Below, in pieces: positions 16,089 through 47,896 of a stretch of DNA of 50,705 nt. Position 1 is the stretch's first letter. Each line of letters opens with the position of its first letter. A model generated the notes under the pieces. The model had not been told where the DNA came from and made no database searches. It saw nothing but the letters and a program-made list of their open reading frames with translations. A program made the translations under genes and the position numbers. Location: contig JBGQJV010000002.1 in NCBI GenBank assembly GCA_041499215.1, positions 1 through 50,705 on the forward strand, written 5' to 3'. The stretch is from Gemmatimonadota bacterium. Its GTDB lineage: Bacteria; Gemmatimonadota; Gemmatimonadetes; Gemmatimonadales; GWC2-71-9.

Positions 16089-16107
16089 CGATCTCTCCTG
16101 TCCTGCC

Positions 16108-16135
16108 GTAGCGCCGCACAGCTGTGCGGCGCTAC
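16108..16135. repeat. Perfect 28-nt palindrome GTAGCGCCGCACAG|CTGTGCGGCGCTAC (CAGCTG-centred family, copy 1)
   Basis: Self-complementary. Located in the rplE-stop / rpsN-start spacer. Confidence 0.9.
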
Positions 16136-17978: not shown

Positions 17979-18010
17979 CGGTCCGCCGGTCCGACGGTCC
18001 GCCGGTCCGC
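17979..18010. repeat. Single-arm array of CGGTCCGC-type octamers
   Basis: CGGTCCGCCGGTCCGACGGTCCGCCGGTCCGC sits between the rpmC stop and the rpsQ start. The same unit occurs at 36910-37057 and 46804-46868. Confidence 0.8.
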
Positions 18011-18205
18011 CTACTTCCCCAGCTCCTTCGCCCGGAGCAATGTCTTGACCCGGGCGATGTCCCGCCGCAGGTGGCGGAACCGCATCGGGTTCTCGATCGA
18101 CTCCGTGGCCGACCGGAACCGGAGCCGGAATCGCTCCTCGGTCAGTTCGGCCAGCTTCGCCTTGAGATCGTCCACCGACAGCTCGTGCAGGTTGGTCTCG
18201 GCCAT
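18011..18205 (-). CDS. rpmC: 50S ribosomal protein L29
   Basis: 64 aa, ..LSVDDLKAKLAELTEERFRLRF.. typical L29. Confidence 0.95.
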   Translation of the reverse strand: MAETNLHELSVDDLKAKLAELTEERFRLRFRSATESIENPMRFRHLRRDIARVKTLLRAKELGK

Positions 18206-19979: not shown

Positions 19980-20001
19980 GGCGCGCACAGCTGTGCGCGC
20001 C
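19980..20001. repeat. Perfect 22-nt palindrome GGCGCGCACAG|CTGTGCGCGCC (family copy 2)
   Basis: Self-complementary. Abuts the rplB stop codon, 46 nt upstream of the rpsS ATG. Confidence 0.9.
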
Positions 20002-20841: not shown

Positions 20842-21129
20842 TCAGCCCTCGAATACGGGGAGCGTCTCCCCGTCCTTCAGAGTCACGATGGCCTTCTTCC
20901 ACCGCGGAGTCAGACCCTTGGTCTTCCCCCGCACCACCGCGTTACGCCGCATCTGCATGGTACGGACCTTGGTCGCGGTCACCCCGAAGAGCTGTTTGAG
21001 CGCGTCCCGGATCTCGAACTTGCTGGCTTCCGGGTGCACCTCGAAGGTGTACTCCTTGCGCAGCTGGTAGGCGGCCGAGCTCTTCTCGGTCACCACCGGG
21101 CGCACGATGGTCTCGTGCAGCGCAGGCAT
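20842..21129 (-). CDS. rplW: 50S ribosomal protein L23
   Basis: 95-aa [18 protein letters not shown].. ATG 21129 shares one base with the rplD stop. The rest of ORF 20842..21816 is out-of-frame overlap with rplD. Confidence 0.95.
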
Positions 21130-22010
21130 TACTTGCCCCCCTTCTTCTTGGGCGCGGATTTCTTGGCCGCCTTTGCCTTGGGCGCCGCCTTCTGGGCCTT
21201 CGGCTTGGCCGCCTTCTCCGCCTTCGGCTTGGCGGCCTTGGCCCGGGTCGCGGTTCTCTCCGCCCTGGCCGGCTTCCCCGCCTTGGCGGCCTTCGCGGCC
21301 TTGGGCTTCTCCGCCGTGGGCTTGACGGGCCGCGCAGCGCGCGGCGCCGGCGCCTCCCTGGGCACGGGCGTGAAGGTCCGCACGAAGGGCACCGCCGGCT
21401 CGCCCGCCAGCGCCGGCTCCTCGACCATCACCACCTCCGCCCAGATCACGTCGTAGGCCGAGGCTTCGTTGAACGGCAGCACATCCACCCGCGGCAGATT
21501 GCGGGCGCTCAGGTACAGCGCCTCGCTGACACCATGGGTGAGCACCAGCACCTTCCGCCCGGCCACGCCCAGCTTCTCCAGCAAGGCAACCAGGTCCCGG
21601 GTCTTCGGGCTCTGCTGCTCGAACCGCTCCACCACGTACAGGTTGCCCTCGGCGGCGCGCGCGTTGAGCGCGCTCTTGCGGGCGAGCTGCTTCACCTTGC
21701 GGGGGATGTCCAGCCGGTAGTCGCGCGGCTGCGGGCCGAACACCTTGCCGCCGCCGGGCCACAGCGGGGACCGGATCGAGCCCTGCCGGGCGCGGCCGGT
21801 GCCCTTCTGCTTCCACGGCTTCTGGTTGCCGCCGGACACGAAGCTCCGGGTCTTGGTGGCATGGGTGCCCTGGCGCTGGTTGGCCAGGTAGACCTTGACC
21901 GCCTCGTGCATGACCGGCCCGTTTACGGTGCCATCGAAGAAACCCTCCGGCAGCGCGAAGGCGGCGCTCTTCCGGGCGCCGGCCTGCGAGAAGTGCGGGG
22001 CCTCAATCAT
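21129..22010 (-). CDS. rplD: 50S ribosomal protein L4 with a ~90-aa Ala/Lys/Pro-rich C-terminal extension
   Basis: Core ..[25 protein letters not shown].. followed by the tail ..[55 protein letters not shown]. Confidence 0.95.
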
Positions 22011-24383: not shown

Positions 24384-26480
<2,097 letters not shown>

Positions 26481-26509
26481 CTAGATCTCTGAGATCCCTT
26501 GACTCGTTG

Positions 26510-26529
26510 GCGCGCACAGCCGTGCGCGC
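26510..26529. repeat. Palindrome GCGCGCACAGCCGTGCGCGC (family copy 3, one central mismatch)
   Basis: 30 nt upstream of the fusA ATG, outside the direct-repeat-bounded insertion. Confidence 0.85.
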
Positions 26530-26549
26530 TTACCCAACCTTTACCAGCG

Positions 26550-26596
26550 AAAAAGCGGGGCGACCGACCCGGGAAAGCCCGGTGGTATCGCTCCGC
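26550..26596 (-). terminator. Terminator-like structure at the fusA-proximal end of the element
   Basis: Minus-strand GCGGAGCGA (26588-26596) pairs with UCGCCCCGC (26555-26563) at 8 of 9 positions. The stem encloses the CCGGG-CUUU-CCCGG hairpin and is followed by UUUUU (26550-26554). Confidence 0.35.
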
Positions 26597-26814
26597 GCCC
26601 GTCCGGGTCGAGACCCGGGACGAGGACCATTGCAGGTCCCTGCGTTTCGTTTGGGCCATCCAGCCGGCCCTTCAGAAGGATCGGAGGTGGCTGGCGGGGC
26701 CCGCTCGATCAGGGCCGGCCGGTCACGCGATCCGGATGTCGTCTGGTTTGGTGCGGACGAGCAGGGCCGATTCGGCCACCGCGAAGCACGCGGGAAATCC
26801 CCCAGAGCCCTGCA

Positions 26815-26842
26815 AAGCTAACCCGCTATGGTTCAATGTCAA
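26815..26842 (-). promoter_or_regulatory. Sigma70-like promoter candidate inside the element (TTGACA-16 nt-TAGCTT)
   Basis: The -35 is at 26837-26842 and the -10 at 26815-20 on the minus strand. The extended -35 context GGCCCCGTTGACAT is identical to that of the tRNA-operon promoter candidate at 45506-45519. Confidence 0.35.
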
Positions 26843-26879
26843 CGGGGCCTGGACGGACGCGAAGACGGGAGAAGCTAAC

Positions 26880-26906
26880 GGGGTGAGTTCGTGTGGAACT
26901 CACCCC
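26880..26906 (-). terminator. Strong hairpin just downstream of rpsG (possible terminator or processing site)
   Basis: Perfect 11-bp stem GGGGTGAGTTC / GAACTCACCCC with a 5-nt loop. On the minus strand it is followed by GUUAGCUUCU. Confidence 0.35.
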
Positions 26907-26952
26907 TTGGCAGCAGGACTGTCCGCTGCACCACTGACCGCCTCCCCGCCCT

Positions 26953-27419
26953 TTACCAGCGGTAGTGCGCGAACGCCCGGTTGGCCTCGGCCATCCGATG
27001 CGTGTCTTCCTTCTTCTTGATGGTGTTCCCCTCACCCTTCGACGCGAGGATCAGCTCGGCTGCCAGGCGCTCCTGCATGGTCTTCTCAGACCGGGCACGG
27101 GAGAACTCGATGATCCAGCGCATGGCCAGGGCGGCGCGCCGTTCGGGGCGGACCTCCACCGGCACCTGCAGCGAGGCGCCGCCCACCCGGCGGCTCTTCA
27201 CCTCGAGCGCGGGCTTGGCGTTGTTGACCGCCTGCTTGAACACGGTGACCCCGGGCTGGCCGGTGCGCTCCTCGATCATGTCCATCGCGGAGTAGAAGAT
27301 CCGCTCCGCGGTGCTCTTCTTCCCCTCGAACATGAGCGAGTTGATGAATTTGGAGACGGTCTGGCTGTCGTACCGGGGATCAGGCGGCACCGGACGACGG
27401 ACGGACTTGGTGCGCCGAC

Positions 27420-27423
<4 letters not shown>
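26953..27423 (-). CDS. rpsG: 30S ribosomal protein S7
   Basis: [18 protein letters not shown].. ends ..[10 protein letters not shown], typical S7. Confidence 0.97.
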
Positions 27424-36909: not shown

Positions 36910-37057
36910 CGGACGGGCGGACCGGCGGACCGGCGGACGCAGAGTGTCTCCTCACATTGCGCCCTGAGTTCTCGGCCTACCTGCCCAACCTGTCCCGTCT
37001 AGTAACTCGCTATTGCCTCGGATCGGCCGTCCGCCGGTCCGCCGGTCCGTCTGTCCG
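36910..37057. repeat. Octamer-array hairpin (GGACCGGC)n / (GCCGGTCC)n in the rpoB-rpoC spacer
   Basis: 36910-36939 pairs with 37028-37057 as a 30-bp stem (21 consecutive perfect pairs at 36919-36939 / 37028-37048, plus 2 G.U). The loop is 88 nt. Confidence 0.85.
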
Positions 37058-37062
37058 CCCGC

Positions 37063-41526
<4,464 letters not shown>

Positions 41527-43761: not shown

Positions 43762-43781
43762 GCGCGCACAGCTGTGCGCGC
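43762..43781. repeat. Perfect 20-nt palindrome GCGCGCACAG|CTGTGCGCGC (family copy 4)
   Basis: Self-complementary, 25 nt upstream of the rplK ATG. The flanks GTAC..TCTAC resemble copy 1. Confidence 0.9.
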
Positions 43782-44937: not shown

Positions 44938-45010
<73 letters not shown>

Positions 45011-45069
45011 GACCGCCCAGTTCCTCAGTGGTGCGGCCAACACGTGCGTTGGCCACCATCCCTCAGCCA

Positions 45070-45142
45070 AGCGGGCGACGGGGCTCGAACCCGCGACATT
45101 CAGCTTGGAAGGCTGACGCTCTACCAACTGAGCTACACCCGC
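45070..45142 (-). tRNA. tRNA-Gly (anticodon UCC)
   Basis: Reverse complement GCGGGTGTAGCTCAGTTGGTAGAGCGTCAGCCTTCCAAGCTGAATGTCGCGGGTTCGAGCCCCGTCGCCCGCT. Confidence 0.93.
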
Positions 45143-45148
45143 GAAACA

Positions 45149-45248
45149 AGGCGGAAGGGCGGCAAGGCGGGAGGGCGGCATGCCCGGTCGTCCAGTCAGC
45201 CATCCACCGCCACTCGCCAGCTCCACCGGCGTCCCGCCCTTCCGCCTT
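45149..45248. repeat. Repeat-arm hairpin (AAGGCGG/AGGGCGG units) in the tRNA-Gly / tRNA-Tyr spacer
   Basis: 45149-45163 (AAGGCGGAAGGGCGG) pairs perfectly with 45234-45248. The same unit family occurs at 2605-2636. Confidence 0.75.
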
Positions 45249-45259
45249 CCCGCCTAACA

Positions 45260-45343
45260 TGGTGGGGGTAGGATTCGAACCTACGTAGCGCAAAGCGCGG
45301 CAGATTTACAGTCTGCTGCCATTAGCCACTCGGCCACCCCACC
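45260..45343 (-). tRNA. tRNA-Tyr (anticodon GUA, long variable arm)
   Basis: Reverse complement GGTGGGGTGGCCGAGTGGCTAATGGCAGCAGACTGTAAATCTGCCGCGCTTTGCGCTACGTAGGTTCGAATCCTACCCCCACCA. Confidence 0.93.
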
Positions 45344-45385
45344 GACGCCCGCACGCTCCCCGCCGCTGGCAGCGCTCCTGGGTAG

Positions 45386-45458
45386 AGCTGACGGAGGGAA
45401 TCGAACCCTCAACCGCCGGTTTACAAAACCGGTGCTCTGCCAGTTGAGCTACGTCAGC
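45386..45458 (-). tRNA. tRNA-Thr (anticodon UGU)
   Basis: Reverse complement GCTGACGTAGCTCAACTGGCAGAGCACCGGTTTTGTAAACCGGCGGTTGAGGGTTCGATTCCCTCCGTCAGCT. Confidence 0.93.
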
Positions 45459-46340: not shown

Positions 46341-47896
46341 ATCCGGCGCACCTCGACAGTGCCGTCCTTGTTGTCCCGCACCTCCCAGCCAGCGGCGTTG
46401 AGCAGGTCGCGGATGCGGTCTGCTTCCTTATAGTCCCGGCGGCGTTTGGCCTCGGAGCGGAGCCGCGCCCAAGCCTTTGCCCAACCTTCTTGCTCATCCC
46501 TGCCCTCGGGGGCAGCAGAGGACAGAGAGTCAGCGCGCGTTTTATCGCTCAGGACGATCGAGTCGGTGAGCGTTACCGATAAAACGCGCGCTGCTTCCCC
46601 TCCTGGCAAAACGTCTAGCACTCCGATCAGCTTGTTCCACACCCCCATCCCCGCCTGGCCCGGCAGCTCCCCTTCATCGAGCAACCGGTTCCCGTCCCGC
46701 ACCGCGTCGAACAGCGCGGCAACCGCCTTCGGAGCGTTCAGATCCTCATCGAGAGCTTCGCGGACAGAGAGCTCGAGTCTCCGACTCCACTCCTGCCATC
46801 CTTCCGCCGGTCCGCCGGTCCGCCCGTCCGCCCGCCCGCCGGTCCGCCCGTCCGCCGGTCCGCCCGCCTTCCTGAGCCGGGCATCGAACTCCCCCAGCCG
46901 CCGGCTCCCCTCCCGCGCCCCCTCGAGGGCCTTGTCGGTCAGATCCATCTTCTGCCGGTAGTGGGTACTGAAGACCAGCAATCGGATTGCCCCGGGATCC
47001 ACTCCATCCTCCCGCAGATCCCGCGGGGTGGTGACGTTGCCGTAGCGCTTCGACATCTTTGTGCCGCGGATGCTCAGGAACTCCCCGTGCACCCAGTAGC
47101 GGGCGAACAGGTCCTTGCCGGTGTGAGCGCAGGACTGCGCGATCTCGTCCTCGTGATGCGGGAAGATCAGGTCTACCCCGCCGGCATGGATGTCGAGCAT
47201 GTCAACCCCGTAGTGGCGGCCGATGAGGTCGAGCGCCATGGCCGAGCACTCGATGTGCCACCCAGGCCTTCCCCGGCCGAAGGGGGCATCCCAGGCCGCG
47301 CCGACCTTTTCGTCCTCCTCCTTCGCGGCCTTCCACAGGACAAAGTCCCGGGCATTCTCCTTGTCGTACTCGTCCGCCAATACCCGGCCGCTGGCTCCGG
47401 CCTTGAGTTCACGCTTGTCGAGCTGCGACAGGCGGCCGTAGGCCGGGAACTTCGCGATGGAGAAGTAGACCGAGCCATCCTCACCCCGGTAGGCCACCCC
47501 CTTGTCCAGCAGCGACTGGATCAGCGCCACCATCGGCCTGATGAACTCGGTGGCCCTCGGGTACTCGTGGGCCCTCCGGATGCGCAACCAGTCGCAGTCC
47601 TCGAAGAAGGCCCGGGCGAAAGGTTCAGTGTGCAGCTTGAGTGGCTGACCGGCCGCGAGCGCGCCGCGAATGGTCTTGTCGTCCACATCCGTCAGATTCA
47701 TGATGTGGAACACCTCGTAGCCGCTGGCCTCCAGCCAGCGGCGCAGCAGATCCTCGAACAGGAACGTCCGGAAGTTCCCGATGTGGGCGAAGTTGTAGAC
47801 CGTGGGCCCGCAGGTGTACATCGCCAACCGCCCGGGCTTTAGCGGAGCGAACTCCTCGACCTGGCGGGTCAGGGTGTTGTAGAGGCGGAGCGGCAT
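46337..47896 (-). CDS. cysS: Cysteine--tRNA ligase (with a repeat-encoded insertion and a C-terminal extension)
   Basis: MPLRLYNTLTRQVEEF..CGPTVYNFAHIGN.. and KMSKRYGN. ATG 47896 chosen. 519 aa. Confidence 0.95.
   Translation of the reverse strand: MPLRLYNTLTRQVEEFAPLKPGRLAMYTCGPTVYNFAHIGNFRTFLFEDLLRRWLEASGYEVFHIMNLTDVDDKTIRGALAAGQPLKLHTEPFARAFFEDCDWLRIRRAHEYPRATEFIRPMVALIQSLLDKGVAYRGEDGSVYFSIAKFPAYGRLSQLDKRELKAGASGRVLADEYDKENARDFVLWKAAKEEDEKVGAAWDAPFGRGRPGWHIECSAMALDLIGRHYGVDMLDIHAGGVDLIFPHHEDEIAQSCAHTGKDLFARYWVHGEFLSIRGTKMSKRYGNVTTPRDLREDGVDPGAIRLLVFSTHYRQKMDLTDKALEGAREGSRRLGEFDARLRKAGGPADGRTGGRADGRTGGPAEGWQEWSRRLELSVREALDEDLNAPKAVAALFDAVRDGNRLLDEGELPGQAGMGVWNKLIGVLDVLPGGEAARVLSVTLTDSIVLSDKTRADSLSSAAPEGRDEQEGWAKAWARLRSEAKRRRDYKEADRIRDLLNAAGWEVRDNKDGTVEVRRI
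46804..46868. repeat. CCGGTCCG/CCCGTCCG octamer array inside the cysS coding sequence
   Basis: Encodes [22 protein letters not shown] in frame. 19 nt (46804-46822) are identical to 37031-37049 in the rpoB-rpoC spacer hairpin. Confidence 0.85.

Follow-up and report, generated by a model that had tools for sequence, protein, structure and literature searches.

The question raised by the stretch of Gemmatimonadota DNA considered here, 50,705 nucleotides (nt) of contig JBGQJV010000002.1 (hereafter the window), is what occupies the long spacer between two neighbouring translation genes, rpsG and fusA. The coding sequence of rpsG, for ribosomal protein S7, extends over 26953-27423 and that of fusA, for the elongation factor EF-G, over 24384-26480, both on the minus strand and both taken from lists of open reading frames (ORFs), in the case of rpsG together with its translation. 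The coordinates of both genes bear out the gap of 472 nt (26481-26952) to which an earlier, sequence-only reading had drawn attention. Behind fusA, tuf, rpsJ, rplC and rplD follow on to secY, adk and map on the same strand, such that fusA heads a co-oriented cluster (fusA-tuf-rpsJ-rplC-rplD-…-secY-adk-map) and the leader described below heads a translation cluster of ~17 kb. The sequence-only reading had taken most of the spacer for an inserted element of 400 nt bounded by a 12-nt direct repeat, and had offered a mobile element, an acquired promoter with an attenuator-type leader and an independent small RNA (sRNA) gene as explanations. We find that this '400-nt element' has three separate components: a region of rpsG-distal hairpins peculiar to the window, and a promoter and a leader that are both conserved. 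That the leader is a cis-acting attenuator at the head of the fusA–tuf–S10–spc cluster is, from its sequence and that of its relatives, the proposition we favour, holding it to be somewhat better than an even bet.

The comparison rests on two samples of relatives. The genome sample consists of the 80 best species-level loci, chosen through rpsG, of which 67 reach fusA; nearly all of them are labelled Gemmatimonadales, Gemmatimonadaceae or Gemmatimonadota, and the S7 of the window is 99% identical to that of Gemmatimonadaceae metagenome-assembled genomes. The metagenome sample, to whose listed matches all metagenome figures refer, was obtained by scanning contigs for the pattern of the leader's last hairpin, P4, alone (GCGGAGCGANACC-N12-42-GGTCGCCCCGCTTTT), with the context ignored. 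It yielded at least 120 contigs, reaching down to 75% S7 identity, and the 109 listed contigs with enough downstream sequence make up, together with the 67 genome loci, 176 assessable loci.

The distance between rpsG and fusA in the best 80 loci is almost never short, being mostly 182-680 nt and, in ~20 of them, 0.8-5.9 kb. When the window spacer was compared with these loci by blastn (spacer position p corresponding to window coordinate 26953-p), positions ~327-411 (window 26626-26542) were matched in ~75 of the 80, always just upstream of fusA, and positions 213-411 in the closer relatives, the rpsG-proximal 210 nt being essentially private to this lineage. Likewise, the 15-mer GGTCGCCCCGCTTTT is identical in 68 genome loci and present in all 67 that reach fusA. 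The conserved element lies upstream of fusA in each of these 67 and in 109 of the 109 listed metagenome contigs, and no match to the P4 pattern in any other context occurs among the contigs listed; in all 176 assessable loci, then, a structured and conserved RNA is found directly upstream of translation genes, as is expected of a translation-operon leader. The interval from P4 to the fusA start is 15-215 nt, with a median of 31-42 (17-215 nt after the U-tract in the metagenome contigs). At the nucleotide level P4 and its tail have a median identity of 89%, as against 84% for rpsG and 86% for fusA.

The element stays with fusA where 0.7-6 kb of unrelated genes part rpsG from fusA. The intervening kilobase-scale genes, present in 32 loci, encode a major facilitator superfamily (MFS) transporter, an extracytoplasmic function (ECF) sigma factor, an rve transposase, a serine/threonine kinase, a glycosidase and a Kelch protein. 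The rpsG/fusA junction is a break point between two units, and the str cluster has been repeatedly broken there in Gemmatimonadales. As an observation on these inserts themselves, those of 0.7-6 kb between the rpsG stop and the leader occur in about one fifth of the loci (L006, L018, L021, L028, L031, L033, L035, L040, L051, L055, L060, L062, L067, L071, L076, L079 and L080), many of their genes lie on the opposite strand, and the ECF sigma factor carries DUF6596, the glycosidase is of glycogen-debranching-like type, the Kelch protein has Kelch repeats and the transposase belongs to the rve family.

The most divergent contigs carry a minimal form of the leader directly after the rpsG stop, comprising GACAAC, which belongs to the joining region and is kept even here, the hairpins P2 and P3, and P4, with no P1; in loci L144 and L187 P2 and P3 are also gone and P4 alone is kept. 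Because P4 persists in the minimal forms and on its own in these two loci, it is the universal module. The leader is ancestral to the clade, not recently acquired, and probably stands in front of fusA throughout the phylum Gemmatimonadota.

In the window the leader, like every other feature of the spacer, is read on the minus strand. It starts with a variable 5' part (26740-26808), in which the sequence contains the hairpins CCGCG-UGCUU-CGCGG (26779-26793) and GGCCG-AAU-CGGCC (26765-26777) and of which the start, GGGCU…, alone is conserved among relatives. The P1 domain (26677-26739), defined by RNAalifold and by pair counts, follows with ACAU, the P1 5' strand CGGAUCG (26728-26734), P1b GUGAC (26722-26726), a variable hairpin (26691-26721), CCAC-CUC (26684-26690) and the P1 3' strand CGAUCC (26677-26683). 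Alignments then place a lineage-specific extra hairpin, GGGCCGGCUGGAUGGCCC (26653-26670), and a joining region, AAACGAAACGCA (26641-26652), which corresponds to the conserved GACAACGCG. Two hairpins recognised by covariation come next, P2 (GGGACC-UGCAAU-GGUCC, 26624-26640) and P3 (CGUCCCGGGU-CUCG-ACCCGGACG, with the helix strands CGUCCCGGG/CCCGGACG, 26600-26622), and then the terminator-like hairpin P4 (26555-26596), recognised by invariance and covariation, with the stem GCGGAGCGA…UCGCCCCGC and a variable upper part, CCGGG/CCCGG. In its lower stem GCGG-A-GCGA faces UCGC-C-CCGC across an A·C mismatch, and above it lie a 2-nt bulge (UA), two G-C pairs and a small internal loop. The end (26538-26554) comprises the U-tract UUUUU (26550-26554) and the conserved tail CGCUGG (26544-26549), with which the downstream copy of the 12-mer starts.

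RNAalifold, applied to 69 genome-derived cores, predicted P1, P3 and P4, with compensatory changes at 12 of 30 pairs. A covariance model comprising P1, P1b, P2, P3 and P4 (169 positions, 38 pairs) finds a single match in the window (26539-26738, 121 bits) and exactly one per locus in 100 metagenome loci that add up to 555 kb. The pairing was assessed on 100 metagenome sequences, none of them used in building the model: 96.1% of cells are paired, against 83.0% after shuffling; compensatory changes occur at 28 of the 38 pairs and the covariation score is 0.348 against 0.126 shuffled, neither value being reached by any of 500 shuffles; and sliding one strand by 1-3 columns lowers pairing to 37-54%. 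The helices P1, P1b, P2, P3 and upper P4 covary strongly. Compensatory changes affect every pair of P1 (6/6) and P1b (3/3), with 96-100% of cells paired, in a domain that is missing from the most divergent, minimal lineages; every pair of P2 (6/6; 92% paired); every pair of P3 (9/9; 88-97% paired); and every pair of upper P4 (4/4). The lower part of P4 (GCGGAGCGA-N-ACC … GGUCGCCCCGC-UUUU) is of a different kind, its 10 pairs being invariant in the 69 genome-derived sequences, which were chosen via rpsG only; in the metagenome set the same invariance is partly forced by the search pattern. The P4 consensus is GCGG-A-GCGA-NA-CC-N-[variable stem-loop]-NNC-GG-UCGC-C-CCGC-UUUU(U)-CGCUG, and the terminator hairpin holds 24 invariant nucleotides.

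Since G·U pairs are frequent, the RNA strand is the fusA-sense one, and the same frequency excludes a T-box-like sequence, GGUGGUAUCGC, which lies on the opposite strand. Similarly, the region is non-coding because loop and linker lengths vary by amounts that are not multiples of three; a leader peptide or small ORF was rejected on this ground, and the ORFs listed for the spacer are the usual artefacts of high GC content.

The presence of this leader in relatives bears directly on the proposed insertion. The 12-mer CCTTTACCAGCG does occur twice, at 26538-26549 and 26950-26961, as the sequence-only reading had it, and there is no third occurrence in the 50.7 kb; 0.12 occurrences are expected by chance, and at least two matches arise in none of 100 shuffles. 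The upstream copy (26950-26961) consists of the last rpsG codons, CGC TGG TAA (Arg-Trp-stop), followed by AGG, and the downstream copy (26538-26549) begins with the conserved leader tail. After the U-tract most relatives have CGCTG, many CGCTGG and about 20 of 172 CGCTGGTA(G). Across these 172 loci the run common to the tail and the rpsG end is 0 nt long in 43, 4-7 nt in 109 and 8-10 nt in 19; it reaches at least 8 nt in 20 and 12 nt in this window only. The second copy is for the most part the conserved leader tail, which is similar to the Arg-Trp-stop codons of rpsG.

A mobile or once-mobile insertion, recent or in the ancestor of the clade, which duplicated a target CGCTGGTAR at the rpsG end, has some circumstances in its favour. 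The repeat exceeds the chance expectation just given, the tail repeats at least 8 nt of the rpsG end in the 20 relatives noted above, several of these tails pass into a normal-looking short ribosome-binding site (for example CGCTGGTAGAGGAC…ATG), as is seen in some lineages, and the junction is a hot spot of insertion, in one case with an rve transposase. We nevertheless give this explanation very little credence. Of the further copies expected of a mobile element a repeat search finds none in the window, and the covariance model finds one match per locus in the 555 kb of related DNA; BLAST against plasmids and phages gave no match; neither terminal inverted repeats nor a recombinase was found; no empty site exists in 176 loci down to 75% S7 identity; and the length of the repeat varies from 0 to 12 nt while its rpsG copy is fixed by coding. 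The recent version, with its target duplication or att-like core, is refuted by the relatives, and the insertion reading as originally stated fails because these carry an ancestral, equally long and alignable spacer in which the 12-mer is not duplicated. An ancient insertion at the rpsG end would bear on the origin of the leader, not on its present function. Derivation of the leader from a duplicated rpsG 3' end (ACAUCGGAU vs GCAUCGGAUGG, plus CGCUGGUAR) was also considered and rejected, the likeness being too weak beyond this window. An ancestral control region, and not an insertion, can thus lie behind a long, 'odd' spacer flanked by a repeat.

The one piece of the spacer that really appears recently inserted lies outside the conserved leader. 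This palindromic repeat unit, GCGCGCAC-GGCU-GUGCGCGC (26505-26533), sits between P4 and the fusA ribosome-binding site, and it accounts for a distance of 69 nt between P4 and the ATG, so that the stem and U-tract do not stand immediately before fusA as had been described. It belongs to a family (D3) of 20-nt palindromes, GCGCGCAC-AGCT-GTGCGCGC, with conserved flanks, recurring in intergenic spacers of the window in four copies (19981-20000, 26510-26529, 43762-43781 and the variant 16107-16135) and confined, as far as 1.47 Mb of DNA from related Gemmatimonadota shows, to the window and L198, its nearest relative; it looks like a lineage-specific repeat resembling repetitive extragenic palindromic (REP) sequences.

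The remaining features of the spacer, namely the perfect 11-bp hairpin (26880-26906), the promoter-like TTGACA-16-TAGCTT, the local helices and the stem with U5, were all confirmed at the positions that the sequence-only reading gave them. The rpsG-distal hairpins (26880-26929), which include, besides the 11-bp hairpin, the pair GCAGCGGAC/GUCCUGCUGC (26910-26929), are not conserved, the 102-nt rpsG-distal stretch having a blastn match in just one of 199 related loci; going by their sequence and position they are the probable end of an rpsL-rpsG transcription unit. Locus L065 has, directly after the rpsG stop (761-830), a near-perfect hairpin of ~70 nt that scores like generic hairpins of the microRNA (miRNA) type on both strands and probably represents either an rpsG terminator specific to that lineage or a palindromic insert.

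The promoter, by contrast with the rpsG-distal hairpins, is kept as a motif in relatives. In the window its -35 element, TTGACA (26837-26842), is separated by 16 nt from a -10 element, TAGCTT (26815-26820), the whole occupying 26815-26842, and a GC-rich discriminator, TGCAGGGC, follows; transcription would start near 26805-26808. Among the 160 loci holding both genes a perfect TTGACA-N16-TAnnTT stands upstream of the leader in 82 and a version with one mismatch in a further 9; the promoter spacer is 16 nt long in 91 of 92, and it is succeeded by a GC-rich discriminator and a conserved GGCTTGG. A simple scan with the E. coli consensus misses the promoter of the window, whose -10 matches at 3 of 6 positions. 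The other 69 of the 160 loci have no promoter motif on the rpsG side of P4 or on its fusA side; here rpsG is followed directly by the leader, and often no more than 19-32 nt lie between the U-tract and the ATG. Given the absence of a promoter motif from these loci and the little room before the ATG, fusA must be transcribed through P4.

These numbers also decide how much weight can be given to an independent, trans-acting sRNA gene of ~170-260 nt, with its own promoter and terminator, lying upstream of fusA by chance. A conserved promoter and a terminator do bracket the structured RNA in ~57% of loci, and termination of the leader transcript would leave a discrete RNA to accumulate. However, the internal promoter is missing in 43% of loci (being present in 91 of 160), the position of the element is tied to fusA in all 176 assessable loci, always at 15-215 nt, and there is often no room for a separate fusA promoter. 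This candidate of the sequence-only reading is accordingly disfavoured, and we regard it as very improbable.

P4 itself has the anatomy of an intrinsic terminator, a GC-rich hairpin followed by a U-tract on the transcribed strand. Its folding free energy is -24.4 kcal/mol, UUUUU follows directly on the last base of its stem, the stretch UUUU never varies, and at least five U residues are present in 171 of 188 sequences. The variable distance between P4 and the start codon argues for a transcriptional role over occlusion of the ribosome-binding site. Taken together, this anatomy, the need for read-through to express fusA and the variable distance to the start codon are the reasons for preferring an attenuator. 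The promoter with an attenuator-type leader for fusA-tuf was among the explanations first offered, and it is the supported one, save that it was there called acquired.

We propose the following mechanism. The control region of the fusA unit would consist of a conserved promoter of the sigma-70 type, in this lineage, leading into a structured 5' leader (the P1 domain, the joining region GACAACGCG and the hairpins P2 and P3) and then into P4 with its U-tract, which would act as an intrinsic terminator. The fraction of polymerase reading through P4 would set the expression of EF-G and of downstream genes, and by position this passage probably also governs tuf and the ribosomal protein genes of S10/spc. 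Termination would be modulated by a trans-acting factor recognising P4 itself, the likeliest being a translation-apparatus protein encoded downstream, as L4 acts on the S10 leader of E. coli. Such a factor is suggested because both strands of lower P4 are invariant, the helix is irregular, P4 persists alone and no covarying antiterminator is seen. S7 would be a less logical effector than the proteins encoded downstream, since rpsG lies upstream of P4.

An antiterminator was sought in two ways. A scan of all column pairs for a conserved alternative pairing gave only complementarities of 4-6 bp. Folding of the nascent RNA gave a probability of ~0.37 that CGC in the joining region pairs with the three bases that open P4, and the corresponding helix, the only candidate to recur, of CGCGU in the joining region with GCGCG at the base of P4, shows no covariation, 83.4% of its cells being paired as compared with 83.3% after shuffling. 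This last result weighs against the attenuator, and several other points have to be set beside it. Termination at P4 in vivo, regulated read-through and the identity of the effector are what we infer from sequence. A simple terminator scan does not flag P4, on account of its mismatch and its long upper stem and loop size. The minimum free energy of the window leader is only modestly below that of shuffled sequences (z = -1.81), the evidence for structure being comparative and not thermodynamic. The invariance of a mostly Watson-Crick helix is not accounted for by terminator function alone, and no likeness to ribosomal RNA (rRNA) that would point to one ribosomal protein is significant, either against E. 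coli rRNA or against the Rfam rRNA models. Finally, much of this evidence could also be accommodated by a partial terminator acting constitutively, or by an element for processing or stability.

Part of this evidence could be read in another way, with P4 as a post-transcriptional protein operator or a processing or stability element (for repression of fusA translation, as an RNase III-type site or as a protective hairpin) and the U-tract as a landing site for the ribosome or S1 and not part of a terminator. We consider this unlikely, while giving it more than passing weight. Protein sites typically have an invariant and irregular helix like that of lower P4, covariation supports no antiterminator, and in about half of the loci P4 ends at most 35 nt from the start codon, such that a bound protein could reach the ribosome-binding site; on the other hand, the distance to the start codon ranges over 15-215 nt with unrelated hairpins in between, as in the window with its 69 nt including a palindromic repeat, and an invariant U-tract abutting a GC-rich stem is the classic signature of a terminator.

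The same want of an alternative pairing bears on a small-molecule riboswitch, for a guanine nucleotide or alarmone for example, in which P2, P3 and lower P4 would form the aptamer and the ligand would shift the stability of P4. The several stems with covarying helices, the conserved joining nucleotides and the terminator would suit a riboswitch, as might its place at the head of a translation cluster, where a global signal would make sense. Yet there are lineages with P4 only and thus no aptamer-like domain, others have no P1, the alternative terminator/antiterminator pairing is unsupported, conservation is higher in the expression platform than in the putative aptamer, whereas in known riboswitches the opposite holds, and no Rfam riboswitch matches; we therefore hold it to be improbable. 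Still less probable is that P2-P3 constitute a put-like RNA for processive antitermination, by which polymerase modified in cis would read through P4 and later terminators of the cluster. Two covarying hairpins 1-2 nt apart, immediately upstream of a terminator and at the head of a very long co-oriented cluster of ~17 kb, presumably resemble HK022 put. Against this stand the absence of any sequence or Rfam similarity, the loss of P2 and P3 in L144 and L187 while P4 stays, and the invariance of P4, which it leaves unexplained. A broader proposition, that the leader is an undescribed sensor RNA, either a new class of riboswitch or a P4-based protein-RNA feedback module, gating the translation cluster by termination, we put forward tentatively as possible and rather doubtful. 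If true, it would gate EF-G, EF-Tu and the S10 and spc ribosomal proteins across the phylum Gemmatimonadota, the signal being a global one, for example a ribosomal protein or elongation factor in its free state, a guanine nucleotide or an alarmone.

For the attenuator with a protein effector, a resemblance of the leader to rRNA would have been informative. The leader has only 7-11-mers at chance level in common with 16S, 23S and 5S rRNA, the reference being that of E. coli, and the spacer has no local match to the Rfam rRNA models; the loci of the relatives contain no Gemmatimonadota rRNA. Three likenesses noticed by eye were also rejected. That of P4 to 23S 312-340, or more narrowly 317-338 (GCGAUAC…GGGUGAC…CCCCG), a segment that we take to be near the L4/L24 region, is not significant; the words that match lie outside the invariant set, and bacteria have the consensus C-c-A-u-A-g there, not GCGAUAC. 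The 12-mer GGGUCUCCCCAU, which equals positions 84-95 of E. coli 5S rRNA, is confined to five loci forming a sub-clade (L055, L070, L076, L079 and L178), at the P2 3' strand and P3 start; it lies inside a covarying helix and is missing from other lineages, so that its match is probably due to chance. A loop-C-like sequence, UUCCGAAC, is present in a subset of loci only and is not significant. A candidate boxA/Nus site, GAUCUUCCAAU, was rejected as well; it agrees at only 6 of 10 positions with the boxA consensus GYUCUUUAANA (PMC5725501), and lies in a covarying P1 strand whose sequence is therefore unconstrained.

Nor does the leader belong to a family described in Rfam 15. At gathering thresholds the only matches in the whole window are four transfer RNAs (tRNAs), which form a cluster at 44938-45458 on the minus strand. 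In agreement with the sequence-only reading, which recognised no RNA family, the spacer gives no match even at E<=10 beyond sub-threshold miRNA and sRNA noise, and no relevant match came from 8 related loci at E<=1, where Chloroflexi-1 overlapped best, with 24 bits against a gathering threshold of 80.

Two further features of the window may be recorded. Periodic repeats of 8 nt, GTCCGCCG/GGCGGACC and variants, occur in both orientations in intergenic DNA (2603-2635, 17981-18037, 36910-36939, 37021-37085, 45150-45186 and 46802-46890), one run adjoining the rpmC/rpsQ junction and another lying near the tRNA cluster. The rplD (L4) ORF (21129-22010, minus strand) encodes 293 aa, ~90 aa more than E. 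coli L4, and direct repeats of 24 nt (21184-21309; GCCGCCTTCTGGGCCTTCGGCTTG on the plus strand) make up the coding sequence of its C-terminal part, implying a repetitive tail rich in Lys, Ala and Pro.

How elongation factors and ribosomal proteins are balanced outside the model phyla is largely unknown, and for Gemmatimonadota, a phylum widespread in soil, the element provides a clear-cut candidate for this kind of control. It is a good candidate in that it heads a cluster of ~17 kb, occurs in every relative examined, holds 24 invariant nucleotides and has well-supported covarying helices. In a search for the effector the RNA can also serve as a defined bait, with read-through of P4 as a simple read-out.

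The ribosomal leaders of E. coli are mostly confined to Gammaproteobacteria. Among them the S10 leader, which is not known outside this class, is likewise a structured leader heading a ribosomal-protein cluster, with a terminator hairpin and U-run shortly before the first gene, and there the downstream-encoded L4, together with NusA, acts on the terminator hairpin without a classical antiterminator, in a manner that we liken to that suggested for P4. The two differ in that they have no sequence similarity and that the first gene regulated here would be fusA, not rpsJ. Another point of comparison is the intercistronic attenuator rplL–rpoB of E. coli, a partial terminator after ribosomal-protein genes, such that expression of the downstream genes needs read-through. 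It shares with P4, as proposed here, the position of a partial terminator between ribosomal-protein genes and downstream genes of the same unit, but it is not known to be sequence-invariant over a phylum, and the fusA leader has a promoter of its own just ahead of the putative attenuator in about half of the lineages, a circumstance that favours regulation over a fixed stoichiometry.

Within the str operon itself, attenuators have been predicted in other phyla, as 'rpsL-leaders' in diverse phyla and as a rpsG–fusA attenuator of streptococci (Naville & Gautheret 2010, PMC2965389), and a Pelagibacter rpsL motif is occasionally found before fusA (Meyer et al. 2009, PMC2704228). These too are structured or terminator-containing elements within rpsL-rpsG-fusA-tuf, some of them between rpsG and fusA, for which feedback by S7 has been proposed; however, they belong to other phyla and have no sequence in common with the leader described here, their authors stress that the elements are mutually unrelated, and their Rfam models give no match here. 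The infC-rpmI-rplT leader of B. subtilis (PMC1865079) is similar in being ~200 nt long and standing before a translation-factor gene that is followed by ribosomal-protein genes, and in its L20-dependent attenuation, where the protein induces formation of the terminator. It differs in its rRNA-mimicking L20 site and its competing folds, whereas for the fusA leader a competing fold lacks support and the comparison with E. coli rRNA and the Rfam rRNA models revealed no significant mimicry. Surveys of ribosomal leaders hold nothing for fusA or Gemmatimonadota (PMC7247131), and a literature search for a fusA leader or motif returned nothing relevant. Set against these systems, the leader would be a new cis-acting regulator, to be placed among the attenuators of ribosomal operons and set apart by the unusual invariance of its terminator hairpin.

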